52,213 nt of DNA from Candidatus Woesearchaeota archaeon (GTDB lineage: Archaea > Nanobdellota > Nanobdellia > Pacearchaeales > GW2011-AR1): assembly GCA_964592915.1 (NCBI GenBank), contig CAZQGH010000001.1, positions 10,544 through 62,756 on the forward strand. Reading direction: 5' to 3'. The translations under genes were made by a program, and so were the position numbers. Below, one piece after another: positions 5,371-22,246 of the stretch. Position 1 is the stretch's first letter. Every line of letters starts with the position of its first letter. The notes beneath the pieces were generated by a model that was given only the letters and a program-made list of their open reading frames with translations, was not told the origin of the DNA and did not search any database.

Positions 5371-6093
5371 ATGAAAATAAAATTTTTTTTAATGGTTCTT
5401 GTATTTTTATTAGTTCTAACTTCTTTTGTTATGGCTGATAAAATAGGAACTTATGAAGGCAAGATGAATGTTGAGGCAGAAAACGGAAGAATTATAATTT
5501 CTGGAAAAGGTTCTGTTACTCATTATTGCGGTAATGAGATATTAGATGCATACCCTCCTTATTATGAACAGTGCGATGGAAATGATATGGGAGGGGAGTC
5601 TTGTCAATCATTAGGATATGATTCCGGGCAATTAGCTTGCCAATCAAATTGTGTTTATGACACCTCTTTGTGTTCAAATAATGTAAATACAGGAGACAGT
5701 AATGGAAATCGAGGTTTAGGTGGGGGTGGGGGTAGTAGCATAGATGATGAAGATAATGGTGAAATAATATACTTAAATGAAGGAGAATGTGTTGAATTAT
5801 GGGAATGCACTAACTGGTCTGATTGTAAACTTGGTAAGCAGATAAGGGAATGTGCAGATATAAATGAGTGTGGGACTGAAAAAATTAAGCCTGTTGAAGA
5901 AAGAGACTGTAAAATTGATGTGCTAAATGCGCCAACTTCTTCAGAAATCATACCAGGAATTGTAGGAGCTGTAACTGGCATTTTTGGCAAGTTAGGTTTA
6001 TCTCAGATTTTGGTTGTTGGAGTATTTATTTTAATATTAGTTATCTCTTCTATCTCTGTTTACCTATTAAGAATTTTATATAAAAAGAAATAG
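5371..6093 (+). CDS. secreted Cys-rich protein with poly-Gly linker and C-terminal TM anchor
   Basis: Signal peptide, GGGGGSS linker, the module CVELWECTNWSDCKLGKQIRECADINECG, and a C-terminal hydrophobic helix followed by a basic tail. Confidence 0.7.
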   Translation: MKIKFFLMVLVFLLVLTSFVMADKIGTYEGKMNVEAENGRIIISGKGSVTHYCGNEILDAYPPYYEQCDGNDMGGESCQSLGYDSGQLACQSNCVYDTSLCSNNVNTGDSNGNRGLGGGGGSSIDDEDNGEIIYLNEGECVELWECTNWSDCKLGKQIRECADINECGTEKIKPVEERDCKIDVLNAPTSSEIIPGIVGAVTGIFGKLGLSQILVVGVFILILVISSISVYLLRILYKKK

Positions 6094-6109: not shown

Positions 6110-6138
6110 CCTTAAAAATCAATATTTCTTATGAAAAA
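6110..6138 (+). promoter_or_regulatory. promoter block of SRP RNA copy 1 (ccTTAAAAATc...)
   Basis: TTAAAAAT box at 6112-6119, about 25 nt upstream of the predicted RNA 5' end. The block is conserved 27/29 with 37465-37493. Confidence 0.55.
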
Positions 6139-6400
6139 TGTAGACTAGGCTGGCAGGTTAGTTCTCTGCCATTTGCAAATGGACTTTAGGCAAGCTGCAA
6201 GGGAGAGCGTGAGATAAGTGGTAAAAAGCCCTTATTCCAACGTTGAGGTTCTGTCCTACTCGACCTTGTTCTTGCGAATTGGGTCAGACCTTGATCGGAG
6301 CAGCCCTAAACAGGAATTAAGGTGCTTGTGGGGTTGCAGAACTGAGGAGGAATCAGGATCACTTTTTACTTTTCTTATCGAGCCATCTCCTGAGTCTACA
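6139..6400 (+). ncRNA. signal recognition particle (7S/SRP) RNA, copy 1
   Basis: GC-rich ~261-nt island in AT-rich DNA. The 5' tgtagact pairs with the 3' agtctaca. It has the archaeal-type 5' CUAGGCUGGCAGG start and a helix-8-like GGGUCAGACC..UCGGAGCAGCCCUAAACAGG, resembling human ACGGAGCAGGUCAAAACUCC and E. coli GGUCAGGUCCGGAAGGAAGCAGCC (both recalled from memory). Confidence 0.8.
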
Positions 6401-6649
6401 TACAGTTAGTTCAATGAATAAAACATCTATAGGATAAATCATCGATATTTCTAAGCTTTCGAATTGAAGATTAAGTTAAAAGATTAGTATTAAACCATGT
6501 TTGAAAAATAAAAATCTATAAAATGCCATTTACTACTTTCCAATTTTATGATATCACTTTCCAGTCCATTGGTATATAAATTAAATTATATTGTAAAATA
6601 GATTTTTGATTGCAAAATTATATTTAAAGAAAGCTGAATTATTATAAAT

Positions 6650-6817
6650 ATGAGCTTGAAAATAGGTTTGAAAATGGTTTCATCCGGAGAAAAAGAAGCT
6701 GAAAAGGAGATAAGGAAAATCATGGATGATATATGGGAATTATATCCTAAAGCTCAGGTAGAAAAAGGGGACTTTAGGAGAAAAGAGAGTGAAATAGTTT
6801 TTGAAGTTAAGAATTAG
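6650..6817 (+). CDS. small hypothetical protein (55 aa)
   Basis: ATG-to-TAG ORF below the track cutoff, with a tatatttaaag TATA-like box about 25 nt upstream. Confidence 0.3.
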   Translation: MSLKIGLKMVSSGEKEAEKEIRKIMDDIWELYPKAQVEKGDFRRKESEIVFEVKN

Positions 6818-6844
6818 TTTTTCTATTTTTCTTTTATTTTTTAT

Positions 6845-7150
6845 TTAACACTCAGTCCTAATATATCCTTCTTGTAATGCCTGTTCTTCTGATTCAAAAC
6901 ACATTAGGTTTTCTCTTAATATGTTTTTAGCATATCTACAGTTACATTCATAGTATTTATCTGAGTTAACTGAACCAACATATTTTGTATTTTCTGAACA
7001 CCCTAATTCTATGCAAGAATTATTTTTAGTATTTTGAATAGTTTCATCATTTATATTATCTGAATAACCATAATTTATTACCAGTATTACAGATATGACT
7101 GAGAAAAACACTATTAACAATACCATTAAAAAAATTACTTTAATTTTCAT
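6845..7150 (-). CDS. small membrane-anchored Cys-rich protein (Ada-like/'sunset'-type metal-binding C-terminus, tentative)
   Basis: N-terminal TM followed by YVGSVNSDKYYECNCRYAKNILRENLMCFESEEQALQEGYIRTEC. Confidence 0.55.
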   Translation of the reverse strand: MKIKVIFLMVLLIVFFSVISVILVINYGYSDNINDETIQNTKNNSCIELGCSENTKYVGSVNSDKYYECNCRYAKNILRENLMCFESEEQALQEGYIRTEC

Positions 7151-7169
7151 CCTATTTTTCTATTATTTA

Positions 7170-7388
7170 TCAGGAACCTATGCCACATAATTTTTCTAAA
7201 TCCAGCCTTTGTTCATCACTTACATTTCCCAATAATTCAAACATTTCAATAGAGCTTACTTCAATTTCATCTGGCAATTCCATAATTAACTGGTATGCTT
7301 CCTGATATTGCTTTCTGTCTAATAATTCATAAAAGCTTTTCTGAACTGGATTTGCTTGCGGGGTTTGCGGATTATATGGTGTGTTCAT
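7170..7388 (-). CDS. small hypothetical protein
   Basis: 72-aa ORF overlapping the upstream RHH-like gene by 4 nt, which suggests an operon and possibly a TA-like pair. Confidence 0.45.
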   Translation of the reverse strand: MNTPYNPQTPQANPVQKSFYELLDRKQYQEAYQLIMELPDEIEVSSIEMFELLGNVSDEQRLDLEKLCGIGS

Positions 7389-7603
7389 TTCTTCCTTGGC
7401 CTTCCTCTATTTTCTCTGGAAAACATTCCCACAAGTTTATCGTCAATTTTTATTTTTCTTGTTCCTTTTCTTTTAGAATAGGATACACAGCTTCTTCTTA
7501 TTATATCCTCAACTTGTTCTTTTATTGTTAATAAATTTTCCTTACCTCTTTTTTTGAGAATTTTGACTTCATCATCACTTAGATTTATTGTCAAACTTGG
7601 CAT
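7385..7603 (-). CDS. ribbon-helix-helix (CopG-like) small DNA-binding protein
   Basis: N-terminal SLTINLSDDEVKILKK strand-helix pattern and a basic tail. Confidence 0.5.
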   Translation of the reverse strand: MPSLTINLSDDEVKILKKRGKENLLTIKEQVEDIIRRSCVSYSKRKGTRKIKIDDKLVGMFSRENRGRPRKK

Positions 7604-7820
7604 TTTTTTCCTCTTTTTTTGTTTGCTTTTTATTGATTTCTTTATTTTTTGGTTTTTTATGAATATATTTAGTTATTAAAGTATATAATATCCAGTAGAT
7701 AATAAAAAATATTATAATACTGATAATGTCAAACTCATTTCCCAATAAAGATAAAATTAGTGCAAAAACAATTGTTGCAACAATTGTTGTTATTGTTGTT
7801 TTCAAGATTATTTTTTCCAT
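7575..7820 (-). CDS. small membrane protein
   Basis: Two hydrophobic helices followed by a lysine-rich tail. Confidence 0.45.
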   Translation of the reverse strand: MEKIILKTTITTIVATIVFALILSLLGNEFDIISIIIFFIIYWILYTLITKYIHKKPKNKEINKKQTKKEEKNAKFDNKSK

Positions 7821-7823
7821 TTT

Positions 7824-7982
7824 TTATTTATTAGGTTTTTCTTCAACTTCAACAGGAATGAAATAAATAAACCAGATTACCCATATTAACCATGAAGCCC
7901 ATATTGATTCGCCTCTCAAAATTCCTGAAATAGCAAATAAAGCAAAAAATCCGAAAAAGCCTAATTGCCAGTTTTTTCTCAT
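7824..7982 (-). CDS. small membrane protein (52 aa)
   Basis: ORF below the track cutoff: MRKNWQLGFFGFFALFAISGIL...WLIWVIWFIYFIP. It is tightly packed between neighbouring minus-strand genes. Confidence 0.3.
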   Translation of the reverse strand: MRKNWQLGFFGFFALFAISGILRGESIWASWLIWVIWFIYFIPVEVEEKPNK

Positions 7983-8012
7983 TGTTTTCATTTTAATTTT
8001 CTTAATTATTTT

Positions 8013-8306
8013 TTATTTCTTAACTACATATGTTTTCTGAACTTTAAATGATTTGTATATTCCCTCTAATATGTCTGTGCCAGCATAACCTGCTAGTAAT
8101 GATAAGCGATAATCAAAATTAAATATCAATCCTACAAATGTGCCTATTACTACTGCTATTATAACGGTTATAGTATAATATCCCCATAATATCTTTCTTC
8201 TTAATGATAAAGCTTTCATTAAGCCTATGAATCCTCTTGTTAAGCCTCCCAAACCTCCCAATAATGATGGCAATATTAATTGCTGCATAGTTTCAGTTGT
8301 TACCAT
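8013..8306 (-). CDS. small membrane protein
   Basis: 97-aa ORF with Gly-rich TM segments (LLGGLGGLTRGFIGL). Confidence 0.5.
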   Translation of the reverse strand: MVTTETMQQLILPSLLGGLGGLTRGFIGLMKALSLRRKILWGYYTITVIIAVVIGTFVGLIFNFDYRLSLLAGYAGTDILEGIYKSFKVQKTYVVKK

Positions 8307-8387
8307 TTTTTATTTTTCCAACCTCTTTTTTCCTTATTTTTATACTTGTTAACAGTATTGATTATTTTTATAAGTTTCGATTTTGCT

Positions 8388-8759
8388 TTATAATGCGAGC
8401 AGTTTGTTGATTATTTGTTTTATACTTTTTTCCCTGGATTTAATGAATTCTGAAGAAATTTTTTCTCCGTAATACACAATATTATTTCTTGTTACTCTTA
8501 ATTCATCAATAAGCTGGATTTCTCTCTGAGATAAAGATTTGATATTTTTAGCTGCATACTCTACTAAAATTTTATGGCTTAAAGTTTTCCATCCTTTTTT
8601 ATACATAAAAGCTGTAATTAATTCTTTTATAATCTCATAATACTCCTCAATAATTCTGTAGGGCTTTTCAAAATTCATATTATCAAACCTGTCCTGTGCC
8701 ATTTCTTTTAATGCTTTTGCTCTTTTTTCATCCTTGCTTATCTTAAATATGTCTTTCAT
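8388..8759 (-). CDS. HEPN-domain protein (MNT/HEPN module)
   Basis: All-helical 123-aa protein with LRVTRNNIVYYG. It overlaps the upstream NTase gene by 4 nt. Confidence 0.7.
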   Translation of the reverse strand: MKDIFKISKDEKRAKALKEMAQDRFDNMNFEKPYRIIEEYYEIIKELITAFMYKKGWKTLSHKILVEYAAKNIKSLSQREIQLIDELRVTRNNIVYYGEKISSEFIKSREKSIKQIINKLLAL

Positions 8760-9259
8760 CTTTCTCCAAAAAGAATTGTTCCTTGTTTAATATTTTGTTT
8801 TAAACTTTCTGAAGCTTCTGTTTTAAACACTATATGTATGTTTCTGCTTAAATATTTTTCATATTTCTCCAGATTAATTTTAAATTTTTTAGTGTCTACA
8901 AAAATATCTACATCGCTTGTTTCTATATCTTCTCCTTTATCATAACTTCCAAATAAAATTATTGATTTAGGATATTTTTCTTTAAGTTTATCAATTAAAC
9001 CTGAATTTCTAAGTTTAACAAGATTAGCTAATTTTTTATAAAAAATAAAGTCGGGATTTTCTCTCTTTGCTTTATATCCTTTGTATATATCTCCTTTAGC
9101 AGTTTTTATTAATCCTATTTTAACTAATTCTAATAAATGGTTTTTCACTGATGTATGAGCCAGATTAATTTTTCTTGATATTTCTTTAATATAATGAATC
9201 TTAGTTGGCTCTATGAAAAACACTTCAATGACATTCCATATACTACATTTTTGTAACAT
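8756..9259 (-). CDS. wHTH-nucleotidyltransferase (MNT) partner of HEPN
   Basis: N-terminal wHTH-like region followed by LFGSYDKGEDIETSDVDIFV (GSx10-SDxD NTase motif). Confidence 0.75.
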   Translation of the reverse strand: MLQKCSIWNVIEVFFIEPTKIHYIKEISRKINLAHTSVKNHLLELVKIGLIKTAKGDIYKGYKAKRENPDFIFYKKLANLVKLRNSGLIDKLKEKYPKSIILFGSYDKGEDIETSDVDIFVDTKKFKINLEKYEKYLSRNIHIVFKTEASESLKQNIKQGTILFGER

Positions 9260-9540
9260 GTGGTATATATATGTATATTACACTATATAAATGTTGCTAT
9301 TTTAATTCAGTTGCTATTATTTAAAATCTTAAATATGCATAATTTCAAGTAAGATTATGGAATGGAGAACAAATGGAATGCCTGGATTTTTTGGAAAAAA
9401 CCGGGATGAAAGGTTTGCACTGATTTGGGTTATTTAATTTTGCTGTTTAAATGTGATGAAGCAATTTCTGGTTATGTTCACTTTGCCAAAGATGGATTTG
9501 GAAGCATAGCCCATTGCCTAAAAATAGAATCAGGCAATAT

Positions 9541-9936
9541 TCAATCAATTTTAGAAGAAGTTGAAAAATTAACTGATTTTTTCTGCTTGTAATACAAAAT
9601 TATTCCTGCAACAATTATAATCCCCAATATTGTCAGGAAAGAATTAATGAAATTAATTCTTAACCCAATTAAATTAAGATAAAAAACAAATAACGGGACT
9701 ATTGCTATAGACAATGCAAATGATAAAGCAATTCTCTCAATCACATCAATTTTAGCTGGAGGGAAGAATATATAGCTGATTAAATAGCCAGGTAAAAACA
9801 AAACATATACTGAACCAAAAACAATTCTAAATGATTCCAGCATTGTTAAATTACTGAATAAACCAATTGCAAGGGAAACTAAGACTAGTATTAATACAAT
9901 AATTCCTGTGTATTTTAAGTATTTATTTGGCTTCAT
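9541..9936 (-). CDS. membrane protein, unknown function
   Basis: 131-aa ORF with four hydrophobic helices. Confidence 0.55.
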   Translation of the reverse strand: MKPNKYLKYTGIIVLILVLVSLAIGLFSNLTMLESFRIVFGSVYVLFLPGYLISYIFFPPAKIDVIERIALSFALSIAIVPLFVFYLNLIGLRINFINSFLTILGIIIVAGIILYYKQKKSVNFSTSSKID

Positions 9937-10480
9937 TTTTTATTTTGTCAAGTATTTGAGTAAATTTAGTATATCCTGCTTGTTTATTAAAATGTCCTGC
10001 ATTTTTAATGATATGTAATTCTGCATCTATCTTATCTCTTAATTCATATGCTTTTTCCAAAGGAACATAAGGGTCATTGTCAGAATGAAACATAATAAAT
10101 TCATTGCAGTTTTGCTTTATTTCATCCCAATTGAATTCCTTAGTTGTAAAACTCTTATTGAGATTATCAAATTATTCATTATTTAATAATCCTATAAAAC
10201 CAGAGACAAAATAGCAAGCTTTAACTTTTTTATTTATTTTTTCTAAAACTGATAATATAAATGCTGAACCTAAACTATGCCCTATAAATATTGTATCTTC
10301 ATTTACTTTACTTAAATAATTATCATCAAATAATTTCATCCATTTATCTAAACTCTGGTTTTCAGGTGTGGGAAAATCAGGAACAAAAACCTTAGTTTCT
10401 TGTTCTAATTCTTTTTTTAACCAGGGAAACCAATTCTCATTTGCTTTTCCATAAGTTCCGTGAATAATAAAGAAGTTCAT
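9923..10480 (-). pseudogene. alpha/beta serine hydrolase (YdeN/RBBP9-like) interrupted by one in-frame TAA
   Basis: The N-terminal part carries GHSLGS and the C-terminal part carries FHSDNDPYVP...NAGHF. Both lie in one frame, separated only by TAA at 10172-10174. The total of 558 nt equals 186 codons. Confidence 0.75.
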
Positions 10481-10482
10481 TT

Positions 10483-10914
10483 TTATGCGCTTTCCTCCTT
10501 TTTTTCTCCCCCATCTTCCTCTGATTCATCTTCTTCTAATACTAATAAGGACAACAATACTATCAATATTCCTGCTATAATACTTATCAACCATGACAAC
10601 CAGTTTAATTCTGAGGTTTTGAACTTAATAATTATAAAACCTGCTAATCCTAAAAATGATATAAAAATATAATCTTTTTTTGTTATTTCTTTATCCTGAT
10701 TTTTTGGTTTAGGATGTTCTGAAAAAACATCTATAATTCCCGTTAAAATTACAGCAATTAACAAATAATTCAGGTTTAAGTAAACAGAAACTAATCCTTG
10801 CCAGATTTGTTCTAATAATAACAAGACTAAATATGTAACCAACAGGGTTTGAAAGAGATGATTAACTAGTGAAGCATAATGTCCTTTTATCAGGTTTTTA
10901 TTTTTCTCTGCCAT
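10483..10914 (-). CDS. membrane protein with acidic C-terminal tail
   Basis: 143-aa ORF with four TM segments, ending EEDESEEDGGEKKEESA. Confidence 0.55.
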   Translation of the reverse strand: MAEKNKNLIKGHYASLVNHLFQTLLVTYLVLLLLEQIWQGLVSVYLNLNYLLIAVILTGIIDVFSEHPKPKNQDKEITKKDYIFISFLGLAGFIIIKFKTSELNWLSWLISIIAGILIVLLSLLVLEEDESEEDGGEKKEESA

Positions 10915-10917
10915 TTT

Positions 10918-12615
10918 TCATATCCACTCCAATTTCTCCAGCAAGCCGGGTTTGTAAACACTTATGTTAATCCAGTCTATAGGTATTGTGTAGTTTTTAT
11001 ACTGTTCATTTGACAAGTGAGGAATATTAAATACTAAGTTTAATTTGTTATCTTTAATTACCAATTCATCTTCATTGATGTTAAATTGTGTTTCAGTTAT
11101 AATCCATTTATCAGTTCCTTTATCTCTTTCAGGTTGTTCATAATCTGTAACTATATAATCAACATTTTTCATCATCCAGCCCCAGTCCCTAATTCCCACG
11201 ATAGTTTGCTTAAATGGTTTGAAATAATTTTCTTTGGAAAATGACAAGTATGAAGGAGATGAAATGATTATGTCATTTTCATTCACAATTATGTTATGTT
11301 CTCCTGAGCTTAGATTGGCATAAGTTGCATTAACTCTCTGATTTAATTTTACAATATCCTCATTAATCTGTATGTCCTGAAAAGCAACATCATGCCATGT
11401 TCTGAATGCTAATTGAATCGGTCTTGATGTTTCAGCATATAATTTTGCTTTTTTATAAGTCAAATTAAGAAAAATAGTATTATCTGCTAAATATAACTCC
11501 TCTGAAACTATTTTGTTTGTATTGATTTTAATTTCTCTTATTAATCCGTCAAAATCTGAAAAAACCAGTTTATATGTTCCTTGTTCCAGATTGTTCACCT
11601 CTAAACTTCCTGACTGCATTTCAGGAATTTCTCTGGATACTATATCAATGCCGTCATCTTCAATAGTTGTGTTGGCAATCAATTCATCATTCAGGTCATA
11701 TAATGAAATTGATAGTTCATCTGAATTATCATACCAGTTTATGTCCTGCTTTTTCACTTCTAAATTCAGATTGCCTGATGTGTAAATATAAAATTCGTGT
11801 CCTCCCCTTAAGGTTGTGTTAATAATTGTTTCTTTGTTTTCATAATCAATAATATTTGGTATAGGTTTGATTTTTTTATCTGTTGCAATTACAGCCTGTT
11901 TATTTAGCAGATTATCAAAATCAGTTAATTCTTTTTCAGGATTAACTAAATACACATTATCTTTTTTTGGCAATGATTTTAAATTATTTAATTCAGGATT
12001 ATAAATTAAATTCCATAAATAATGCCATTCCTGCCTGTCTTTAGCTCCCAAACTTAATACTGAGTCAGGAAAATTATCCTTCAATTTAGTCTGTATTGTT
12101 AGTGATTCAGTTCCCCTTGGTATTGGAACATCAAAGTATACTAATGAAGAGGTTAAATTTTTAACCTCGGTATTGCCTAAAACAAATGCTCCTGTTATTC
12201 TTGAAAGAGGAGATAAATAATTTGAATCAGAATCAATATCATAGAAATAATTGAATTCCTGAGAAATTAAAAAATTAATAGTAAGCAAGTATAATAATAT
12301 CATAACAGGAATCAGTATGATGATTATTTTTAACACTCTGACATGCTTTGGTTCTGTAATGAAGTCTTTAGCTTTCTGGTAATCCTCTCTTATTATCTCT
12401 ATTATTGTTTCTTCTTCTGCTTCATTTTTCAGTTTATCAATCTGCTTTTTGTATTTTTCAACATCTTTTGTTAATTTTCTGACTTTATCTTCAGCTTTAA
12501 ATTTCTTCTTTACTTTATCTTTGTAACTTTTAGAATAATCCAGATTTTTACCCTCTTTTTTATCATTCCCTGTATTTTCTTTGTTATTAGAGTTGTTTTG
12601 ATTGTCAGTTTTCAT
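10918..12615 (-). CDS. large membrane-anchored extracytoplasmic protein
   Basis: Lys/Glu-rich N-terminus, a single TM (VLKIIIILIPVMILLYLL) and a ~420-aa external domain. The start is taken at the internal MKTDNQ, which overlaps the upstream stop by 11 nt. Confidence 0.65.
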   Translation of the reverse strand: MKTDNQNNSNNKENTGNDKKEGKNLDYSKSYKDKVKKKFKAEDKVRKLTKDVEKYKKQIDKLKNEAEEETIIEIIREDYQKAKDFITEPKHVRVLKIIIILIPVMILLYLLTINFLISQEFNYFYDIDSDSNYLSPLSRITGAFVLGNTEVKNLTSSLVYFDVPIPRGTESLTIQTKLKDNFPDSVLSLGAKDRQEWHYLWNLIYNPELNNLKSLPKKDNVYLVNPEKELTDFDNLLNKQAVIATDKKIKPIPNIIDYENKETIINTTLRGGHEFYIYTSGNLNLEVKKQDINWYDNSDELSISLYDLNDELIANTTIEDDGIDIVSREIPEMQSGSLEVNNLEQGTYKLVFSDFDGLIREIKINTNKIVSEELYLADNTIFLNLTYKKAKLYAETSRPIQLAFRTWHDVAFQDIQINEDIVKLNQRVNATYANLSSGEHNIIVNENDIIISSPSYLSFSKENYFKPFKQTIVGIRDWGWMMKNVDYIVTDYEQPERDKGTDKWIITETQFNINEDELVIKDNKLNLVFNIPHLSNEQYKNYTIPIDWINISVYKPGLLEKLEWI

Positions 12616-14281
12616 TTTTACAAGTATATTTGTAGATAAAATTGTCTCCTTTTTGCTCATATATTTCAAAACAGGTGTTATTAAAAGGTTTATTGCCTGC
12701 AAATAAATATATTGGTTTGTTATAATAAGATACTAATTTCATTGTCTTAAATTTATCTGTATTGCTCCAAAATTCATTCCACTCTCTTTCGCTCCATAAA
12801 TCATCATCAAATAACCCCGGAGCTATGGTTTTTCTGTTTGAATAAGCTAAAACAAATGGTGAATATTCAGATGTTAATACCATGACAGATGAATTTATAG
12901 AAGTATCATTTAATTCTGTTATTAATTCCAATTGTTCTTGCGTAATTCCTGGTTTTGCAGAATTAGCTTCCTGATATAATACTACTGATGATGAAACCAG
13001 CATTACAATCATTATGATTATCCCGAATTTCTTTTTTGTCTGGATTAATACTGTGAATCCAACTGATGCTAATATTATTAAAACAATATCCAAATGAATA
13101 ATAAATCTGTTATAAAAAAAGAACTGAAAATAGACTATTATTGCATTTATTAAACACCAGTAAAAAAGCATATTAAATTTCTTTTTTGCAACTAAATAAA
13201 AAAATCCTAAGATTGAAAAAGGAAGATAAAACAATATAGAAAACTGGTATGATAAAAATGATATAAATGTTCCTGGCGCCTCTCCAGTATTGACAAAGCT
13301 TGATAATACCGGTTTGAACATTGTTGTGATTGCTTTAGAGAATTTGCCCAAATAAAACAAGCTCGAAAATATGATTATTAAAGAACCATTGACAATGTTA
13401 TCGCTTAATTTTTTTAAATCATATTTATATCTGAATTTTTTGCCGTTTTTTTGTATTGGATTTAAAAAAGCAAAAGCAAAATATGACAAACCAAATATAT
13501 AGAATGTTGGTCTGTGGATAGAGCCCAATAATGAAGCAAATATGATAAACATAATTCTTTTATTGTCTTTTAAAAAATATAATGCCCATAACATACAAAT
13601 TAATCCTATTACATTTTTATAATACATATATGCAAAAACTTTAAACTGAATAATAGAAACTGCAAATATTAGTAATGAAATTAAAGCTATTTCTTTATTA
13701 AAATATTTTTTAGTAACAAAGTAGAGAGAAATCCCTAATAATACATAAAATAAAATAAACAGCCATGTGAGTATAACATTAGTTGGCAAGAATTTGAATA
13801 ACTGCATTAAATAAAGAAATCCGGGCTCCATTCCCTGCAAAATCCAGTTATCTAAATTAGACAAAGAAGATTCAATTGCATATTTGTATAATCCTGTATC
13901 ATAACCTAAAGGAATTGAATTATTAAAATAAGGCATGGCTTTGAAAAAAAATATCATGAATACTGCAATTAAGAATATTCTTGAATACGCATCAGGATTT
14001 TTTATTATCCGCTTGTATTTTTCTGAAGATTCATAACCATCATGCTCAGAATCATAATCGTAATCGGGATTTTCTATTGATTTTAAATCAAATTTTCTTT
14101 TATGAATAACTGATATTCCCAGTATTGCAATTATCAAACCCAGTATATTAAAATACAGTGCATATTTGCTTAGAAACCCCAGAACAATCAAAACAGTTAT
14201 CACAGAATAAACAACCAGCAGCTGATAAAAGCTGTTTTCAGCTATTTCTCTTAAACTTTTATTCCCTTTTTTCTGTTCCAT
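12605..14281 (-). CDS. polytopic membrane protein, GT-C-like glycosyltransferase architecture (tentative)
   Basis: More than 10 hydrophobic helices plus a C-terminal soluble domain. The function is inferred from architecture only. Confidence 0.55.
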   Translation of the reverse strand: MEQKKGNKSLREIAENSFYQLLVVYSVITVLIVLGFLSKYALYFNILGLIIAILGISVIHKRKFDLKSIENPDYDYDSEHDGYESSEKYKRIIKNPDAYSRIFLIAVFMIFFFKAMPYFNNSIPLGYDTGLYKYAIESSLSNLDNWILQGMEPGFLYLMQLFKFLPTNVILTWLFILFYVLLGISLYFVTKKYFNKEIALISLLIFAVSIIQFKVFAYMYYKNVIGLICMLWALYFLKDNKRIMFIIFASLLGSIHRPTFYIFGLSYFAFAFLNPIQKNGKKFRYKYDLKKLSDNIVNGSLIIIFSSLFYLGKFSKAITTMFKPVLSSFVNTGEAPGTFISFLSYQFSILFYLPFSILGFFYLVAKKKFNMLFYWCLINAIIVYFQFFFYNRFIIHLDIVLIILASVGFTVLIQTKKKFGIIIMIVMLVSSSVVLYQEANSAKPGITQEQLELITELNDTSINSSVMVLTSEYSPFVLAYSNRKTIAPGLFDDDLWSEREWNEFWSNTDKFKTMKLVSYYNKPIYLFAGNKPFNNTCFEIYEQKGDNFIYKYTCKNEN

Positions 14282-14363
14282 TATTATAGAATTTATAATA
14301 TACTGAGATATAAAAGCATTATTGCATTATATTTATTAATTAAAACAGATATTAAATTAAGAT

Positions 14364-14701
14364 TTAAAACCCATTAAAACCAATTTTAATCAAGATATTC
14401 TTTATTTCATTAATGGCTTTTTGCTGGGATTTTTTATCAGACATTCTTACAAACTTGATTAATAAATCAGCTAATGATTTCTTATCAAGAACATTTAATT
14501 TGTGCCCATCTGTGATAAAATAGAATCTGAAAGATTTATACTTTAATTCTTTAATCATTATCCCTCCTACTTGCCCTGATAATTTACTTTTTTTGTGTTT
14601 TCTTCAAGGGTTTCCAGCAAATCAATTATTTTATGAGCCTCTCCTTTAACCTTTTTTTGAATTTCCAAAAATAAAGAACGGATTATTTGGACTTTTGCCA
14701 T
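14364..14701 (-). pseudogene. HigB/RelE (Gp49-like) toxin gene, frameshifted at an A7 run
   Basis: The N-terminal 44 codons from ATG 14701 and the C-terminal ORF 14364-14558 are homologous to the intact paralog at 48628-48966. The frames rejoin if the A7 run (14588-14594) gains one A, giving 339 nt, the same length as the paralog. Confidence 0.75.
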
Positions 14702-14895
14702 TTTTTATCTAATTCTTTTCTTGCTTCATCAATTGAAAGATATCCTTCATCAGACATTAAGAATTCTTTTATCTGCTCTTTTACAGCTAGATTGTAAATC
14801 CTTTTAAGAATATCCTCATAGCTTTCCCCTTTTAATCCAAAAGATGCTATTTTCTTTTTTGTTTCCTTACTTAATTGAATTGTAGTTATATCCAT
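14683..14895 (-). CDS. RHH-like antitoxin (paralog of 48954-49160)
   Basis: MDITTIQLSKETKKKIASFGLKGESYEDILKRIY aligns with METTTIALPKKLQEELKEFGNKGESYSEILERLL. It overlaps the toxin start. Confidence 0.7.
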   Translation of the reverse strand: MDITTIQLSKETKKKIASFGLKGESYEDILKRIYNLAVKEQIKEFLMSDEGYLSIDEARKELDKKWQKSK

Positions 14896-14980
14896 TTTCT
14901 ATATCTCCTATAGATACTATATAATCTATAGTTTATACGCTTTTCTAAAGGAAATTCTAAAATATACAGAAAGCATTAGC

Positions 14981-15286
14981 TTAGTGAGGATAAACAATTT
15001 CTCCAATAACAAACAATATTGCAGATAAGCTGATTAAAACTGACAAGAAAACAAATATGCATCTTTCCCTGTGAAATATGCTTATTAATCCGGTAATAAA
15101 TGATGCAATTCCGCAAATTACTGCCAAAGAAAATGGGATTGATAAATACAAGTTATCAAAATAATTTTCTCCTCCTGTCTGTCCTGATAAAACAAATATA
15201 TTAAATATAAATAAAAATATGGCAAATGCAACCATAAATCTAACTGAATAATTTCCTAATTCTGTTTCAGGGACTAATAAGCTCAT
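14981..15286 (-). CDS. small membrane protein
   Basis: 101-aa ORF with three TM helices. Confidence 0.5.
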   Translation of the reverse strand: MSLLVPETELGNYSVRFMVAFAIFLFIFNIFVLSGQTGGENYFDNLYLSIPFSLAVICGIASFITGLISIFHRERCIFVFLSVLISLSAILFVIGEIVYPH

Positions 15287-15304
15287 CTTGTTTTTTTATG
15301 AATT

Positions 15305-15916
15305 TTAAAACTGATCATTAGATTGTGAAATAAGCTCGATTAACTCATCTGCCTGTTCTTCAGTTTCTATCTCTGTATTTAATCTGTTCTCTAAATTAGC
15401 TAATAAAGTTTTAACTCCCTGGTTTGTTAAAGTGCCATCAGCTGAAGTTACTGGCTCATTATTCTTAATAAAAGTTAATTCATTATCATATATCCAAATT
15501 CCCCCAATTGCTTCTGTGTTATGAAAATCCTGGTTGATTAAACCTGGATAAGCTCCTTTATAGATCTCAGGATTAAATCCTTCAATTGGAACTGCTCCTA
15601 AATTCTCTGTTCCTTTTTGCCATAACTGTTCAGCAAAATAATCTTCAACACTATTTCCATTCCCTTCTTCATTATCATTTATTCCATCATCTAAATCATC
15701 AATTTCCTCAACATAGGTTACTCCATTATGCATGCATTGTCTTGGGTAAGATTCCATAACAGGATTTCCAGCTGCAACACATGACTCAAAATCATTTATT
15801 TCATTTACAATTCCATTCTGAGATGGATAATTTGTAAATAAAACTGCAATTAATACAATTATTGATAACAAAACAATTCCGAGAATCACAAGAATCAAAA
15901 TCATACTTTTTTTCAT
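15305..15916 (-). CDS. membrane-anchored secreted protein, unknown function
   Basis: N-terminal anchor (MILILVILGIVLLSIIVLIAVLF) followed by an acidic soluble domain. Confidence 0.6.
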   Translation of the reverse strand: MKKSMILILVILGIVLLSIIVLIAVLFTNYPSQNGIVNEINDFESCVAAGNPVMESYPRQCMHNGVTYVEEIDDLDDGINDNEEGNGNSVEDYFAEQLWQKGTENLGAVPIEGFNPEIYKGAYPGLINQDFHNTEAIGGIWIYDNELTFIKNNEPVTSADGTLTNQGVKTLLANLENRLNTEIETEEQADELIELISQSNDQF

Positions 15917-15988
15917 ATATAATTATATTGATTCTGATTTATAAATTTATTTAGTTATTTTTATATAATATTTTTATGTATTTAAAAA

Positions 15989-16204
15989 TTAAAAAGAACC
16001 AATCAACTGTAATAAAAAACCAATACAAAGAAGTGCAAGCCAAAAGACATTTCTTTTTAGCTTACTTTTATTTTGCTTTTGCTGTTTCTTATATAGTTGA
16101 ACAACTCTTCCTGACACATCTTTATGAGATTCTATTAAAGTTTGAATTGCCCACCCCAAACTTGCAATAAATGTTAATCCCAAACCAATTTGACTAATAT
16201 TCAT
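15989..16204 (-). CDS. small membrane protein (tentative)
   Basis: 71-aa ORF with two hydrophobic segments flanking a basic loop. It competes with the overlapping plus-strand ORF 15976-16170. Confidence 0.35.
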   Translation of the reverse strand: MNISQIGLGLTFIASLGWAIQTLIESHKDVSGRVVQLYKKQQKQNKSKLKRNVFWLALLCIGFLLQLIGSF

Positions 16205-16327
16205 TATATTTTTAAATGATATAATTAATGCAATTAAAATAATAGCAATAATAAATTATTTTTTTATTAACGATTATCTTTATTTAGTTTTATCAGTCCC
16301 AGGTTTATGCTTAATTAGAATATAACC

Positions 16328-16792
16328 TTAAATGTTTTGATTAACAATTTTTCTATAATCTTTTATTTCCTTTTCATTTAAATTTGAAACAATTTCATCA
16401 AAATTTGATACAAATATTTTAGCTTCCTTGAGCATTTCTTTTATTTTTTCTTCTTGTTCTGTTTTCATATAATATTGGGCATCTATTCTTTTTTCTTTAT
16501 GTGAATTTATTGTTTTTATTAACTTCTCTCCTAAAAGCAATCCTACAGTTAAAATAGAACATGAATGATTCTCGCATTTGACTCCTATTTTTTGAAGAAA
16601 AGAATAAAGGGAATAATATTCAGCATAATAAATTGCAACAGTTGACCATAGAAAATCTTTGTCATCTAGGTCTTTTTCTGCTTTTAATAAAGAAGATTTA
16701 GCTTGTTCAAGATAAGATTTTGCCAATCTATCATTTGGCTCAAGAATTTTCAATCCACCTTTCAGTTTAGAACACCAGCTTAATTTACCCAT
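16328..16792 (-). CDS. HEPN-domain protein (MNT/HEPN module)
   Basis: Helical 154-aa protein with KRIDAQYY. It overlaps the upstream NTase gene by 8 nt. Confidence 0.65.
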   Translation of the reverse strand: MGKLSWCSKLKGGLKILEPNDRLAKSYLEQAKSSLLKAEKDLDDKDFLWSTVAIYYAEYYSLYSFLQKIGVKCENHSCSILTVGLLLGEKLIKTINSHKEKRIDAQYYMKTEQEEKIKEMLKEAKIFVSNFDEIVSNLNEKEIKDYRKIVNQNI

Positions 16793-17354
16793 AATAATCC
16801 CACATTATATTTATGTAAGAAGAGTGATTATTCAATATTATATGATTTTCTTCTATTTCTTTTATAATATTTTCTTGATTCGCTATGGCTTCTCTAAAAG
16901 AATCTTCTGTTAAAGTTATTTTATGAATTTCATAAGGTAGCAAATGCATAGGCAATTTACTATCTGGAATAATGAATATGTCTAAGTCAGATTCTTTATC
17001 TGCCTTAAATTTAGCAAAACTTCCGAAAATTACAATAATAGAGTTTGTACTGAGAGATTTTACAAAAATCTTGAATTGAGGATATTTTTCTAAAAATTTC
17101 TCAGTCTTATTAATCTCTGCCTTTAATAAGTAAGATTTTGTATGAATATTATCTAAGTTTAGACTAAAATATTTATTTTTTCCTTCTTTTTTGCTTTTTA
17201 ATATTTTTTCTTTTTCAAGGATTTTAAGAATATTTTGGCATGTTTTAAGTGGCAATTTAGCAAGTCTGCTTATTTGTCTTAAATAAAATCGAGAGTTATA
17301 ATTACCAGTATAAAGAGAGATTACTTCAAGTTTTTTGTTTCTTTTTTGATACAT
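16785..17354 (-). CDS. wHTH-nucleotidyltransferase (MNT)
   Basis: wHTH region (FYLRQISRLAKLPLKTCQNILKILEKEKIL) followed by FGSFAKFKADKESDLDIFII. Confidence 0.7.
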   Translation of the reverse strand: MYQKRNKKLEVISLYTGNYNSRFYLRQISRLAKLPLKTCQNILKILEKEKILKSKKEGKNKYFSLNLDNIHTKSYLLKAEINKTEKFLEKYPQFKIFVKSLSTNSIIVIFGSFAKFKADKESDLDIFIIPDSKLPMHLLPYEIHKITLTEDSFREAIANQENIIKEIEENHIILNNHSSYINIMWDYYG

Positions 17355-17378
17355 ACGTATACTTTTAGATACGATAGT

Positions 17379-18329
17379 TTATAAATTTTTTGTTTTTTCT
17401 TGCATTTCAGGTTCATGCTTAATCAATACATAAGAAAAAATAGGTCCTAATATTAATAACACTAGAAATGATACTGCTCTACCTAATAAAGCAGCTGTCA
17501 AGCTCTGATATGAGGTTATGCCGATAGTTAAAGCTGAGAAAACAATTATTGCTTCTGAAACTCCTAAATTAGCTGGTGTTAATTGTATTAATAATGATAA
17601 TGAACCAATGCAAGATAAGAATAAGCAGGAAAAATAACTAATATCAATTCCAAATACTCTGAACTGCAAGAATAATGCCAGAGAAGACAATAATAACTGG
17701 GATAATGATATAATAATAACAATAGATATAACTTTAGTATTGTTCTTTATTAAATGCCAGCCATTTACAACTTTTATAAATTTGTTAATAAACTCTGATT
17801 TTGCATAAGGAAATTTTGGAGCAAATATTACAATTAGCAACATGGGTATGAACACACCTGAAAATATCAAAAACAAAATCCAGGAAAATATTCCTGTTTG
17901 GTAATAAATGATTAGTGTTGAAATAATTCCAACTACTGAAGCAACTAAAAATATCAGTATGTAAGATGCAGCTAAAGTAGAGAAAAAATTTGTATATGAA
18001 AAATTATATTTTTTCTTTAAGTAAACTCCACGAGCAAACATGCCTCCTCTGAAGGGCATTATTAAGTTGTAAAATCCTGTAACTATTGAAATCATAAATG
18101 ATTCTTTTAATCCTAATTTGACTCCTAATGGAAGAAGCAGATTCAGAGTTACAATTCCAATTAAAAAATAATTGAACAAAAACAAAGCAATTAAAATAAT
18201 AAGAAGATAAGGAGAAACTAATTTTAATTGCTGAAAATTCTGGTAATTATTTTTCAAATAAAAAACAAAAAATACCAATATAACTATCAGTATTAATATT
18301 GAGAATATCTTTTTTGTTTTTTTATTCAT
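17379..18329 (-). CDS. polytopic membrane protein, UPF0104/LPG-synthase-TM (flippase-like) family (tentative)
   Basis: 316-aa ORF with about 8 TM helices and the typical basic N-terminus. The family call is by architecture and motif feel only. Confidence 0.5.
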   Translation of the reverse strand: MNKKTKKIFSILILIVILVFFVFYLKNNYQNFQQLKLVSPYLLIILIALFLFNYFLIGIVTLNLLLPLGVKLGLKESFMISIVTGFYNLIMPFRGGMFARGVYLKKKYNFSYTNFFSTLAASYILIFLVASVVGIISTLIIYYQTGIFSWILFLIFSGVFIPMLLIVIFAPKFPYAKSEFINKFIKVVNGWHLIKNNTKVISIVIIISLSQLLLSSLALFLQFRVFGIDISYFSCLFLSCIGSLSLLIQLTPANLGVSEAIIVFSALTIGITSYQSLTAALLGRAVSFLVLLILGPIFSYVLIKHEPEMQEKTKNL

Positions 18330-18730
18330 CTTGTTATTTTTATATGGTTTTTTTGTTTATAAATTTGTTTTTTGAGGTTTTTGTAAATTTTTAACTTACA
18401 AATATATGAAAAAAGACTATTCAGATGAGGTTAAATCACTAACTGATAAGTATAAAAAAAGAGATTTAAAGAGGGTAAAATAGTTGAGAAATTGCAAATT
18501 GCAAATAATTCTTAAGATTTTATAGGGGTTGGAGCTGATTAAAACTGACTTCATATTTTGTAAGTAAGGGGCATATGTCCCTAAACCGCACGAAGAAATG
18601 ATGCATATGTTTAAAAAGGATCAAATATTTCTCTTTTTATAATTAGGTATTTCATGCTTGTTATTAACAGATTGTTGAGGTTCAGGTTTGAGGAATTCTA
18701 GTTAAATTAAATTGAAATGGAGTTAAAAAT

Positions 18731-18967
18731 ATGAGAAACAATAATGGTCCAAAAAGAAATTTTGGCAATAAGGGCGGTTTTAGAAGTTCTGGTGGCGGAG
18801 GAAGAAAAGGCGGATTCAGAAGGAATAATTTTGGTGGTGAGAGGGAAATGCATAAAGCAATATGCTCTGAATGCAAAAAAGAATGCGAAGTTCCTTTTAA
18901 ACCTACTAAAGGCAGACCTGTTTATTGCAAGGAATGTTTTGCTAAGAATAAACCTAAGAGATTTTAA
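18731..18967 (+). CDS. RGG-rich zinc-ribbon nucleic-acid-binding protein
   Basis: N-terminal RGG/GGF-rich region followed by CSECKKECEVPFKPTKGRPVYCKECF (CxxC-x17-CxxC). Confidence 0.75.
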   Translation: MRNNNGPKRNFGNKGGFRSSGGGGRKGGFRRNNFGGEREMHKAICSECKKECEVPFKPTKGRPVYCKECFAKNKPKRF

Positions 18968-19046
18968 AAGTAGTTTGTTCGAGCAAAAACAAATAACTTG
19001 GAGAAAAAAGAAAAAATGATTATAAAATTGAATTAGGAGGTAAAAA

Positions 19047-19241
19047 ATGAAAGGAAAAGTAAAATTTTTCAACAGGATGAAGGAATTTGGATTCATAGCT
19101 GGCGAAGATGGCAAAGAGTATTTTGTTCATAAGTCCGGCTTGAATGAAGGAGTCACTATAGATGAAGAAGATGCTGTTGAATTTGAAGTTGAACAAGGAG
19201 ACCGAGGTCCAAAAGCTGTAAAAGTAAGCAAGTCAGAGTAA
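19047..19241 (+). CDS. csp: cold-shock domain protein
   Basis: GKVKFFNRMKEFGFIAGEDGKEYFVHKSGL, with a strong SD (GGAGGT at 19036-19041) upstream. Confidence 0.9.
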   Translation: MKGKVKFFNRMKEFGFIAGEDGKEYFVHKSGLNEGVTIDEEDAVEFEVEQGDRGPKAVKVSKSE

Positions 19242-19421
19242 TATTCTGTTAATTTCTAGTAAACTTATTAATTTATTGTTTTATTAATTTATTCTTGTTA
19301 TTTTTATGAATCTTGCAAATGGAGCTATGTAATAAGTTTCTTTTTTGGTTAGTTTTATTGGTGGTTAAGTTAAATTTATAAAAACAGAAAATTCTAAAAA
19401 GATAAGGCATATATAAACTAT

Positions 19422-19742
19422 ATGGGCAAAAGCAAAGAGGAGTTAAAAGAATACTTAGAAAGAATAAAAAAAGATAAGATTATTTTTAAAAAACATTTTT
19501 ATGATAAAAAAGAAACAGACAGAAAATATCTGAATGAAGAATTAGTAATTAGCTCATTAAGAGATATAAAAAATTTTATAGGATTTCAGGACCAGTCAGA
19601 GGAAATTGAAAAATACAGGATAGCAGTGAAGTTAAGTGGGAGATACAATCTTGTTATTGTATGTGAAATAAAAGACAAAAATTTATATATTATAACTGCC
19701 TGGAAAACTAGTAGAAGATGGCAAAAGGCAATGCAAAAATAA
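19422..19742 (+). CDS. small protein, putative toxin partner of DUF2283 (DUF4258-like, tentative)
   Basis: 106-aa ORF overlapping the downstream DUF2283-like gene by 25 nt. Confidence 0.5.
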   Translation: MGKSKEELKEYLERIKKDKIIFKKHFYDKKETDRKYLNEELVISSLRDIKNFIGFQDQSEEIEKYRIAVKLSGRYNLVIVCEIKDKNLYIITAWKTSRRWQKAMQK

Positions 19743-20071
19743 ACTATAATAGTGAAGAGGATATACTTAATTTATCCAAAGGAAATCCCAGCAAGGCTTC
19801 TATTGAAATAGGGGATTTTGTTATTGATGTGGATTTTAAGGGGTTTGTCTCTGCTATAGAAGTTCTGAATGCCAGTGAGAATCTCGGAATCAAGAAAGAG
19901 ATTCTAGAAGAAGTTGAAAAAGCCAGGATGAGTATTGTTTATAAGCCAAACTATTTATTTGTAGGGATAGTATTTAATTTTAGTGGAATAGAAAAAGATG
20001 TCAGAATTCCCCTTACAATTGATTTGGGGCATTCTAAAGTTGAAAAAGAAGAAACTGTTTTTGCAAGTTAA
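19718..20071 (+). CDS. DUF2283-like small protein (putative antitoxin)
   Basis: INYNSEEDILNLSKG...IDVDFKGFVSAIEVLNAS pattern. Confidence 0.6.
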   Translation: MAKGNAKINYNSEEDILNLSKGNPSKASIEIGDFVIDVDFKGFVSAIEVLNASENLGIKKEILEEVEKARMSIVYKPNYLFVGIVFNFSGIEKDVRIPLTIDLGHSKVEKEETVFAS

Positions 20072-20116
20072 TTCTGTTTGAGTTAGTTTTATATATTTCT
20101 TATGAGGCATATTTAG

Positions 20117-20833
20117 ATGAAACAGGAGACTAATATATTTTTAGCAATTATACTGGCAGGATTGATAATTGGTTTATCAATTTTTTCTGGTTTGTTATTA
20201 ACTGGCAGAGCTGTTGAAAAAACTGATTATGCTGAGAGTGAAAAATTAATAATCAATTTGCTGGAGTATGCAAATGTAACGAGAGTGATTGACGGGGATA
20301 CAATTGAAATACAGATTGGGAATGAAAGTGACAGGGTTAGGCTGGCTTGTATTGATTCTCCTGAAACTTATGAGGAGCATTATTATGATGCTAAAGAATT
20401 TGTTGATGATTTAATATTGAACAAACAGGTAAGAATGGAAAAAGATGTCTCTGAGAGAGGAAAATATAACCGATTGATAAGATATATTTATCTTGATGAC
20501 TTGTTTGTTAATGAATTAATAGTAAGAAATGGCTGGGCAAAAACATATCCTTACTATCCTGATACTAAACTATGCCCTCAGATTCAGGAAGCTGAAGATA
20601 AAGCTAAACAAGAGAAAATTGGGATATGGATTGCATCAGAAACAGAAAAAGGACAAGAAGAAAAAGCTGATATAAGCATTAACTACAATTGTGGCTCAGA
20701 TACATATAATTGCAAGGATTTCAAAACACAAAAAGAAGCTCAGGAAGTTTTTGATGGGTGTGGTGGATTAAGGAAAGATGTTCACAAGCTCGATGGAGAC
20801 GGGGATGGGGTGGCTTGTGAGAGCTTGGGTTAG
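20117..20833 (+). CDS. membrane-anchored staphylococcal-type thermonuclease with C-terminal Excalibur domain
   Basis: N-terminal TM, SNase motifs ([21 protein letters not shown]) and a C-terminal [16 protein letters not shown]...[12 protein letters not shown]. Confidence 0.8.
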
Positions 20834-20863
20834 TTTTATATATTTAATTTCATTAATTCTAAC

Positions 20864-21508
20864 ATGAAAAGAGTTAAGATAATCTGGTATTTGTTATTGA
20901 TTATTCCTATTATACTATTAATTTTAGGTTATATTTTTCCTTCTTCATTTTTATCAAATCAGGAGCAGGTTAGAGAGTATATTGCAGGGTTTGGTTCTTT
21001 AGCTCCAATTATGTTTATTTTATTGCAGATTTTATAAGTAGTTTTAACTCCAATAAGTCATTATGCTGTTAGTCTTGCTGGAGGATTTTTGTTTGGAGTC
21101 TGGCTGGGTTTTTTATATAACTGGATTGGAAGAGTAATAGGAAGTTTAATTGCTTTTAATTTGGGAAGAAGATACGGAAGAAAAATAATAAAAAAAGTTG
21201 TTAAACCGAAAACACTGGAAAAATATGATAAGCTATTTGATAAAGGTAAATTCATCTTATTTTTAATGTATTTCTTACCATTATTTCCTGATGATGAATT
21301 ATCATATTTAGCTGGTTTTTCTTCAATGAAATCCAGAGTTTATATTCCTATAATGATTTTAGGTCATATTGGAGGTTCACTAGGATTAGCTGTTTTAGGA
21401 GCTGGATTATCTTACACAAGTCCTATTTTCATAATTGGCTCTATAATCACATTAATTGCAGGATTTTTATTTGTTTTATATTATAGGAAGCTGTATAAGA
21501 ATAATTAG
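20864..21508 (+). pseudogene. DedA/TVP38 (SNARE-associated) membrane protein interrupted by one in-frame TAA
   Basis: ATG 20864 and track ORF 21089-21508 share one frame (645 nt = 215 codons). The only interruption is TAA at 21035-21037, within ...FILLQIL*VVLTPIS... Confidence 0.7.
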
Positions 21509-21567
21509 TTGTTGAGTTAGTTGTTGAGTTAGGAGAATTTTAAAAAGATATTAAATTTAAGTATTAA

Positions 21568-21825
21568 ATGTACAAGATATTTACTGCAAATAGTAAAACA
21601 GAGAAAAGATTGCAAAAATATATTTCTACGAGAAAAGATATTAAAGAAAAATTAAAAAGATTGAAAATAAATCCGAGAAAAGCAAATGGAGCTCACCCTC
21701 TTCATGGTAAATTAGAGGGGAAATGGAGCTGCTGGCTTGGCTCGAATATAAGAGTTATTTATATTATTGATGATATAAAATTAAGAATAATTATTGAGGC
21801 TGTTGGAAGCCATAATATTTATTAA
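21568..21825 (+). CDS. RelE/StbE-family toxin
   Basis: HPLHGKLEGKWSCWLGSNIRVIYIIDD...IIIEAVGSHNIY. Confidence 0.75.
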   Translation: MYKIFTANSKTEKRLQKYISTRKDIKEKLKRLKINPRKANGAHPLHGKLEGKWSCWLGSNIRVIYIIDDIKLRIIIEAVGSHNIY

Positions 21826-22186: not shown

Positions 22187-22246
22187 TTGGTTAGTTAGTT
22201 TTATACAAATAGAAAGAAATAAAAAATAATAGACATTATTGGAAGG

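Follow-up and report, generated by a model that had tools for sequence, protein, structure and literature searches.

We analysed a stretch of 52,213 nucleotides (the window) from contig CAZQGH010000001.1 of a Candidatus Woesearchaeota archaeon of the order Pacearchaeales (assembly GCA_964592915.1); all positions given below are counted from its first letter. The genome that carries the window (G000) is a 1.15-Mb metagenome-assembled genome (MAG) in 60 contigs, with about 30% GC, 85% completeness and 2.4% contamination. The window holds two near-identical copies of the gene for the signal recognition particle (SRP) RNA, in direct orientation and each with its own promoter. The upstream copy (copy A) follows a gene for a Cys-rich surface protein, the downstream copy (copy B) precedes a type IV pilus-like operon, and between the two copies lie 31 kb of accessory DNA (Table 1).

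The two SRP RNA genes

A repeat search of the window returns a direct repeat of 296 nt (6107-6402 / 37462-37757, 98%). When the two copies are aligned together with 150 nt of flanking sequence, 286 of 290 positions are identical over a block (6110-6399 / 37465-37754) that spans the TATA box, the spacer and a structured RNA of 260 nt up to its 3' end, and the similarity breaks off sharply at both ends of this block. Two of the four differences lie in the spacer that leads from the TATA box to the RNA (6121 A / 37476 G and 6133 G / 37488 A) and two within the RNA (6163 T / 37518 C and 6380 G / 37735 A). The identical core common to both copies is the 216-nt segment 6164-6379. The initial annotation of this DNA had described an SRP (7S) RNA present twice including its promoter, with two internal differences and with 27 of 29 upstream nucleotides in common, and the alignment returns each of these observations, the TATA box lying inside the repeat. 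The termini of the RNA pair (GUAGAC/GUCUAC), the GC content of the gene is 47% compared with about 30% for the genome, and the open reading frames (ORFs) at 6218-6409 and 37573-37758, which the annotation had already placed inside a structured RNA, are spurious frames within the RNA gene.

In a scan with an E-value threshold, both copies match the Rfam family Archaea_SRP (RF01857) over model positions 1-317, that is, over the full model, with 89.9 bits for copy A (E 6e-21) and 91.2 bits for copy B (E 1.6e-21). Comparison of both loci with this model had been proposed along with the initial annotation; the matches are significant, yet both remain under the gathering score of the family (96.5 bits), and a scan of the window at the default gathering threshold returns no match. 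The scores fall short because helix 6 is lacking from the SRP RNA of this lineage: in the Rfam alignment, the 40 model positions of this helix are deleted. The gathering score is exceeded in just 28 of 401 genomes of the order, and the RNA is missed in 373 of them. A threshold that misses most of these RNAs matters for the annotation of DPANN genomes.

We built a consensus alignment from the two copies and the SRP RNAs of 19 relatives (21 sequences). The resulting fold contains 74 pairs, 53 of which show compensatory double changes, and is made up of a terminal 5'/3' stem, helices 3 and 4, and a long helix 5 that runs unbranched into helix 8. The loops of helices 3 and 4 pair with each other (AGYCC with GGRCU; columns 25-29 with 57-61), and within this interaction pair 27:59 covaries (C-G in 15 sequences, U-A in six). 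The 5' segment CUAGGC..GGCAGG is read in the sequence as annotated, and so is the helix-8 signature GGUCAGACC..UCGGAGCAGCCCUAAACAGG, which had been taken to bind SRP54; the helix-8 loops GGGUCAG...AGCAGCCCUAA are invariant or nearly so in the alignment, and the helix pairs that flank them covary. Compared with the archaeal SRP RNAs of RF01857 and SRPDB, the RNA is thus alike in its terminal stem, in the loop-loop pairing of Alu helices 3 and 4, in the long helix 5, in a helix 8 with the conserved GGUCAG...AGCAGCC loops for SRP54, in its TATA promoter and in having one conserved locus per genome in the relatives. It differs in three respects: helix 6 is missing, the S domain being a single unbranched hairpin in the consensus fold; the apical loop of helix 8 in the SRP RNA of the order is UUGAYC in place of GGAA; and SRP19 was undetected. 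The Bacillus-type SRP RNA of bacteria has an Alu domain and no helix 6, and the architecture of the present RNA resembles it.

On the protein side, SRP54 (M domain, PF02978) occurs once in G000, on contig C8, and 17 of 21 genomes encode it. None of 41 genomes of the order and none of 101 genomes of the phylum (at least 80% complete) gave a match to SRP19 (PF01922), in a search with a Pfam model that also missed it in one of four archaeal control genomes. A review from 2010 describes SRP19 as known from all archaeal subgroups and as co-occurring with helix 6 (PMC2905702), and SRP19 is cited as dispensable in Haloferax in a passage of PMC6098224. A literature search for the loss of helix 6 and SRP19 in DPANN archaea returned no paper on this reduced form. 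The SRP of a phylum-level archaeal group appears to be reduced to SRP54 and a helix-6-less RNA. Given the full-length Archaea_SRP match (E about 1e-21), the 53 covarying pairs and the single-copy homologues in 322 other genomes (see below), the RNA is the organism's SRP RNA, as first annotated, and both elements are genuine promoter-bearing SRP RNA genes of the reduced type that is general in this order.

The four differences between the copies can be read against the relatives. A TTAAA-type box lies at the same distance upstream of the RNA in the 19 aligned relatives. The 20-nt spacer that follows it is not conserved among them, yet is common to both copies save for its two changes, and the copies therefore share a recent origin rather than a convergent conservation. 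Within the RNA, C at 37518 in copy B is the state of all 19 relatives, whereas the C-to-U change at 6163 in copy A turns a C-G pair of the loop-loop interaction into a G.U wobble (pair 28:58). As this pair is C-G in the 20 other sequences, the pairing is kept but the allele of copy A is derived. The second difference (6380, RNA position 241) falls in an unpaired column in which the relatives have G or A. Folding of both variants, also proposed at the outset, gives predicted energies of -91.0 kcal/mol for copy A and -91.3 kcal/mol for copy B, and the differences are compatible with the structure. Two differences in 20 spacer positions against two in 258 RNA positions (Fisher p = 0.027, with small numbers) is a pattern that purifying selection on both RNAs would give. 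From their sequences, both copies look functional, and both would be expected to be expressed. The T6 run that follows copy B is likely to be an archaeal terminator; copy A is without a nearby oligo-T run and may terminate or be processed differently. The two alleles (U or C at RNA position 24) make a natural system for asking whether both genes are expressed.

Table 1. Features of the window at and around the two SRP RNA genes
Feature	Position	Strand	Remarks
Cys-rich surface-protein gene	5371..6093	+	240 aa; signal peptide; C-terminal transmembrane anchor; left flank
TATA box, copy A	6110..6119	+	CCTTAAAAAT; some 25 nt ahead of the RNA 5' end; forms the 5' limit of the repeat
SRP RNA gene, copy A	6138..6401	+	U at 6163, G at 6380; RF01857
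Accessory island	6403..37461		31 kb; content annotated with Pfam
TATA box, copy B	37465..37474	+	Identical to the box of copy A
SRP RNA gene, copy B	37493..37756	+	C at 37518, A at 37735; RF01857; ancestral position by synteny
T6 run	37763-37768	+	9 nt after the 3' stem of copy B; read from the sequence
Second lineage-specific insert	37776..40650	-	2.9 kb; 520-aa secreted protein and GH3 glycosidase
Type IV pilus-like operon	40692..48627	+	Pilin-like genes, T2SSE ATPase, T2SSF platform (Pfam/NCBIfam)

The single-copy locus of the relatives and the island

SRP RNA is a textbook housekeeping gene and, as the initial annotation had stated, is normally single-copy. Among the 401 genomes of the order that were screened, 323 have a match at E <= 1e-6: 322 carry one copy and G000 alone carries two, which makes a second intact copy a 1-in-323 event in the order. 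The short form of the RNA (258-272 nt) occurs once per genome in 34 of 40 relatives, and loci that share the exact helix-8 motif are labelled as MAGs of Pacearchaeota, Woesearchaeota or Nanoarchaeota. Scans with this exact motif gave no match in viral contigs, and thus no virus-borne SRP RNA, and no locus of the same species in metagenome contigs (28 loci) or genome contigs (nine loci). Within G000 itself, a search for a third partial copy or an att-like remnant returned only chance 12-18-mers. A literature search returned nothing specific on SRP RNA duplication or on SRP RNA as an integration site.

Two loci in other assemblies show repetition of another kind at the 3' end of the gene. In a Woesearchaeota-labelled MAG (L056; CAYXNX010000004.1, 3426-3666), about 27 nt from the 3' end of the SRP RNA, together with 44 nt downstream, are repeated four times in tandem, with a 71-nt period, directly after the SRP RNA gene. 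In a metagenome contig of 1117 nt (L035; Ga0007798_10034889, 1040-1117), the 3' end of the RNA (..CGTCTAC) is joined head-to-tail to about position +9 of the same RNA, and the 68 nt from there to the end of the contig are identical; the junction could reflect a tandem duplication without a promoter or an artefact of assembly.

The neighbourhood of the single gene in relatives indicates which copy stands where. About 15 of 20 relatives, compared over 10 kb on either side, have collinear homologues of the pilus operon directly after their SRP RNA gene, as do metagenome loci, with the first pilin-like gene 0.05-2 kb, mostly less than 1 kb, beyond it; across the order, the operon is the conserved neighbour on this side. 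Copy B, which has this operon downstream, therefore holds the ancestral position. In the window, the operon is followed by rtcB and is separated from copy B by the second insert, which starts 19 nt after copy B and has no flanking repeat; no homologue of its 520-aa protein or of its GH3 glycosidase was found between the SRP RNA gene and the pilus operon in relatives.

The protein encoded just upstream of copy A is predicted to be secreted or anchored and contains the domain CxxWxCxxWSxC..R.C.D.N.CG. This domain occurs just twice in G000 and about 3.7 times per Mb in 20 relatives (50 in 13.4 Mb), four of which have same-strand genes with this domain within 6 kb upstream of their single SRP RNA gene (36 nt upstream in G021, contig C6, and 5-6 kb upstream in G024:C11, G026:C2 and G038:C7). 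About 0.56 such genes would be expected in the 200 kb examined (Poisson p about 0.003, post hoc). On this count, the Cys-rich gene probably belongs to the ancestral surroundings of the SRP RNA gene on its upstream side, and both outer flanks resemble the single-copy locus of the relatives.

Several further observations concern these flanks. The C-terminal Cys-rich module with its transmembrane anchor ends many large surface proteins of these archaea, S8 protease-like ones included, and proteins with the module tend to lie upstream of the SRP RNA gene. A candidate upstream neighbour on contig C19 was set aside, being an internal paralogue and not a contig end. For a 1060-aa protein of the left flank and a 558-aa protein of the island, synteny in relatives is too patchy to be informative. 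The non-coding junction DNA (6398-6850, 37279-37465 and 40600-40700) has no similarity in the genome or in relatives. At the very start of the window (1-127) stands an exact repeat of a 55-nt sequence, with a period of 72 nt, and an independent contig, described below, starts inside it at position 98.

The 31 kb between the copies carry genes of two main kinds. Glycan-type genes are represented by two GT4 and one GT2 glycosyltransferases, an S-adenosylmethionine-dependent methyltransferase and an LPG_synthase_TM protein (Pfam), alongside two membrane proteins with about nine predicted transmembrane segments, one of which is EpsG/PMT2-like. Toxin-antitoxin-type genes comprise three HEPN/nucleotidyltransferase pairs, a lone nucleotidyltransferase, MazF and a YoeB/ParE-like toxin. 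The island also encodes an SNase+Excalibur nuclease and many small ORFs, and it includes an array of cassettes with G-rich repeats at about 19.2-25.9 kb of the window. Some of its proteins have no family match, for example a 594-aa protein at 10918-12702 and a 172-aa protein at 22247-22765. No integrase, replication, partition or phage gene was recognised in the island with Pfam, NCBIfam, PHROGs, PADLOC and PDB sequences, the recombinase scan covering ORFs of at least 81 aa and leaving out a few short ORFs of 70-100 aa. The four tyrosine recombinases of the genome (PF00589) are all encoded elsewhere, on contigs C12, C19, C23 and C24. Island genes are patchy among relatives, and none lies within 10 kb of a relative's SRP RNA gene save for weak matches in four relatives, to the nuclease, the methyltransferase and a small toxin-antitoxin-like pair. 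At genus-to-order distance, the relatives thus present a single SRP RNA copy and both types of flank, without the island genes.

Two kinds of repeated sequence were noted inside the island. Between small toxin-antitoxin units at 22113-25905, G-rich motifs (TTAGTTTGATTT..GGGGTGGGG) are often fused to a TATA-like box. The island also holds diverged copies of two sequences next to rtcB, both 75-86% identical: 14365-14594 corresponds to 48629-48858, part of the 112-aa gene at 48628-48966 beside rtcB, and 36286-36334 to 49383-49431, an element just upstream of the rtcB start.

Origin of the duplication

In relatives, the duplicated segment is a single-copy sequence at this same locus, and in G000 the DNA between the copies is non-homologous to it. 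We propose that the ancestral locus consisted of the Cys-rich surface-protein gene, the SRP RNA gene and the type IV pilus operon, and that 31 kb of accessory DNA (glycan synthesis, toxin-antitoxin, cassette array) entered it at the SRP RNA gene. Entry would have doubled the complete 290-nt unit of TATA box, spacer and RNA up to its 3' end, leaving copy A at the head of the island, joined to the old upstream flank, and copy B at its end, joined to the old downstream flank. We give this integrase-independent insertion of a 31-kb island, with duplication of a complete gene unit, a probability of about one half. The repeat ends at the promoter and at the RNA 3' end, which fits recombination between DNAs that share only this gene and does not fit a random segmental duplication. 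The route would most likely be recombination without an island-borne integrase, either by one Campbell-type homologous crossover of the chromosomal gene with a copy carried on incoming DNA that had become circular, or by insertion with a long target duplication. Both copies would stay functional and feed a single SRP54, with SRP RNA dosage at most doubled, and the 290-nt direct repeats should allow the island to loop out by homologous recombination. If this is what happened, a complete RNA gene unit can act as a homology arm for gaining a large surface and toxin-antitoxin island, and such an island can be gained, and probably lost, without encoding an integrase, in an organism with a reduced genome.

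The contiguity of the arrangement was compared with independent assemblies, namely the Logan per-run contigs (k=31) of runs SRR7048218 and SRR7048220, recovered by exact-protein look-ups. These contigs equal the window over 98-6193, 36302-37548 and 45338-37705 with 99.97-100% identity, and each breaks off exactly 30 nt after a position at which the copies differ, as is inevitable in a de Bruijn graph. They link the left flank to the 5' variants of copy A, the right end of the island to the 5' variants of copy B, and the 3' variant of copy B to the right flank, so that three of the four junctions are reproduced. The contigs of the flanks measure 6-11 kb and that of the right end of the island just 1.2 kb. 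For six proteins from 6845-9259 and two from 12605-18329, an exact look-up in public assemblies found none on record. This suggests that the island is less uniformly represented than its flanks, through microdiversity or through presence in a subpopulation.

A number of observations weigh against an insertion as we propose it. The fourth junction, from the 3' end of copy A to the left end of the island, was recovered from no independent assembly. The arrangement is known from assembled contigs alone, and the 216-nt core is longer than any k-mer; the assembly graph therefore fits an integrated island equally well as a 31,355-bp circle accompanied by an empty site. The searches found no same-species genome in which the site is empty; outside G000, the closest SRP RNA is only about 82% identical. 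The synteny of the upstream flank consists of one protein domain and a post hoc count. The composition of the island is ordinary, with 20% of 31-kb windows equally far in tetranucleotide usage and a GC content of 28.2% compared with 29.9%, and two relatives have a homologue of the SNase nuclease some 3 kb upstream of their SRP RNA gene; part of the 31 kb could therefore be native. Finally, the one ground for the recombination route is that no recombinase was recognised.

The ambiguity of the graph leads directly to a different arrangement, in which the 31,355-bp unit, made up of the island and its own SRP RNA gene, exists as an extrachromosomal circle that the assembler has threaded into a single-copy chromosome by way of the 216-nt core, or in which the population mixes integrated and excised forms. 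Every junction seen or implied fits such a circle as well, and the island does behave unlike its flanks in the sequencing runs, with its short contig and its eight unrecorded proteins. A multicopy episome, however, should assemble better than the flanks and not worse, no replication initiator, partition or conjugation gene was recognised in the 31 kb, the composition is native-like, and the MAG contig runs through both copies, which suggests pair-aware or long-read support; we consider a circle unlikely. The shared repeat could also have misled the assembler in another manner, by merging two strains with one SRP RNA gene each (T..G and C..A, or recombinants of these) and with different neighbourhoods into a chimeric contig. 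One false join at the only shared repeat, however, cannot yield a linear path on which two copies stand 31 kb from each other, except where the DNA between them is circular, and the three junctions recur at 99.97-100% identity in the per-run assemblies. Although a MAG in 60 contigs with 2.4% contamination and 85% completeness leaves room for such errors, and both sets of alleles occur in the same run, we regard a chimera as very improbable.

Two further explanations accept the contig as assembled. The 31 kb might be a long-standing resident of the locus with no insertion at all, copy A then being a secondary 290-nt copy pasted upstream by ectopic duplication or repair. The native composition of the island and the nuclease homologue in two relatives agree with this, as does the contrast between copy B, with the consensus C at 37518 and an oligo-T terminator, and copy A, with a unique U and no terminator. 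Yet the limits of a random ectopic duplication would hardly fall exactly on the TATA box and on the RNA 3' end, the gene next to copy A on its upstream side bears the rare domain found upstream of the SRP RNA in four relatives, and no relative has the glycosyltransferase genes of the island within 10 kb of its SRP RNA; to a pasted copy we concede only a small chance. A classical provirus or plasmid that targets the SRP RNA gene through an integrase, with a recombinase that is divergent, lost or supplied in trans, would account for direct repeats of a small-RNA gene around toxin-antitoxin-rich DNA, a hallmark of such islands. Several island proteins without a family match, the 594-aa one among them, and the four tyrosine recombinases encoded elsewhere in the genome would leave a place for the enzyme. 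The repeat, however, comprises the whole gene with its promoter (290 nt) rather than tens of nucleotides from its 3' end, searches for an integrase, a capsid, a terminase or a replication signal found none, and the genome holds no partial third copy or att-like remnant, which makes such an element most unlikely.

Starting from the integrase-independent insertion that we prefer, we may wonder whether the SRP RNA gene is a recurrent landing or exchange site in this DPANN group, in the role that tRNA genes play elsewhere. The island may then integrate, excise as a circle with its own SRP RNA gene and move between strains. The 2.9-kb insert without repeats directly after copy B, the tandem array of L056 and the head-to-tail junction of L035 are hints in this direction, none of them settled, and we find such a general role rather doubtful.

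Comparison with known insertion systems

The closest familiar arrangement is that of islands at tRNA and tmRNA genes (attL/attR, the Islander model). Here as there, toxin-antitoxin and surface-related DNA begins directly after the 3' end of a small-RNA gene, direct repeats of the RNA gene stand at both ends, and the gene remains intact. The differences are in the target, which here is the SRP RNA gene, and in the repeat, which is the entire gene with its promoter (290 nt) instead of a short piece of its 3' end; an integrase was not recognised either within the island or next to it. Integrase-driven islands are also recognised by a foreign composition, whereas the composition here is that of the genome. 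In a literature search, no archaeal island with an SRP RNA gene as its target came to light.

Insertion with long target duplication has reportedly been described for restriction-modification genes of Helicobacter by Nobusato et al. in 2000. The present case is alike in being, as proposed, an accessory insertion without an integrase, in having direct repeats hundreds of nucleotides long and in that these repeats match a sequence that is single-copy in relatives. It differs in the size of the insert (31 kb and not a few kb), in its occurrence in an archaeon and in that the duplicated target is a complete RNA gene, apparently functional. A Campbell-type integration, for its part, predicts two near-identical full-length direct copies, homology that ends where the parental DNAs diverge, and a reversible loop-out. 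The window shows two such copies, with a homology that ends abruptly; a donor circle, a plasmid backbone or a replication gene could not be identified, and an excised form was not seen. Overall, the arrangement resembles both the tRNA/tmRNA-gene islands and the insertions with long target duplication, and differs in its lack of a recognised integrase, in its target and in the length of its repeat, which spans a whole gene.

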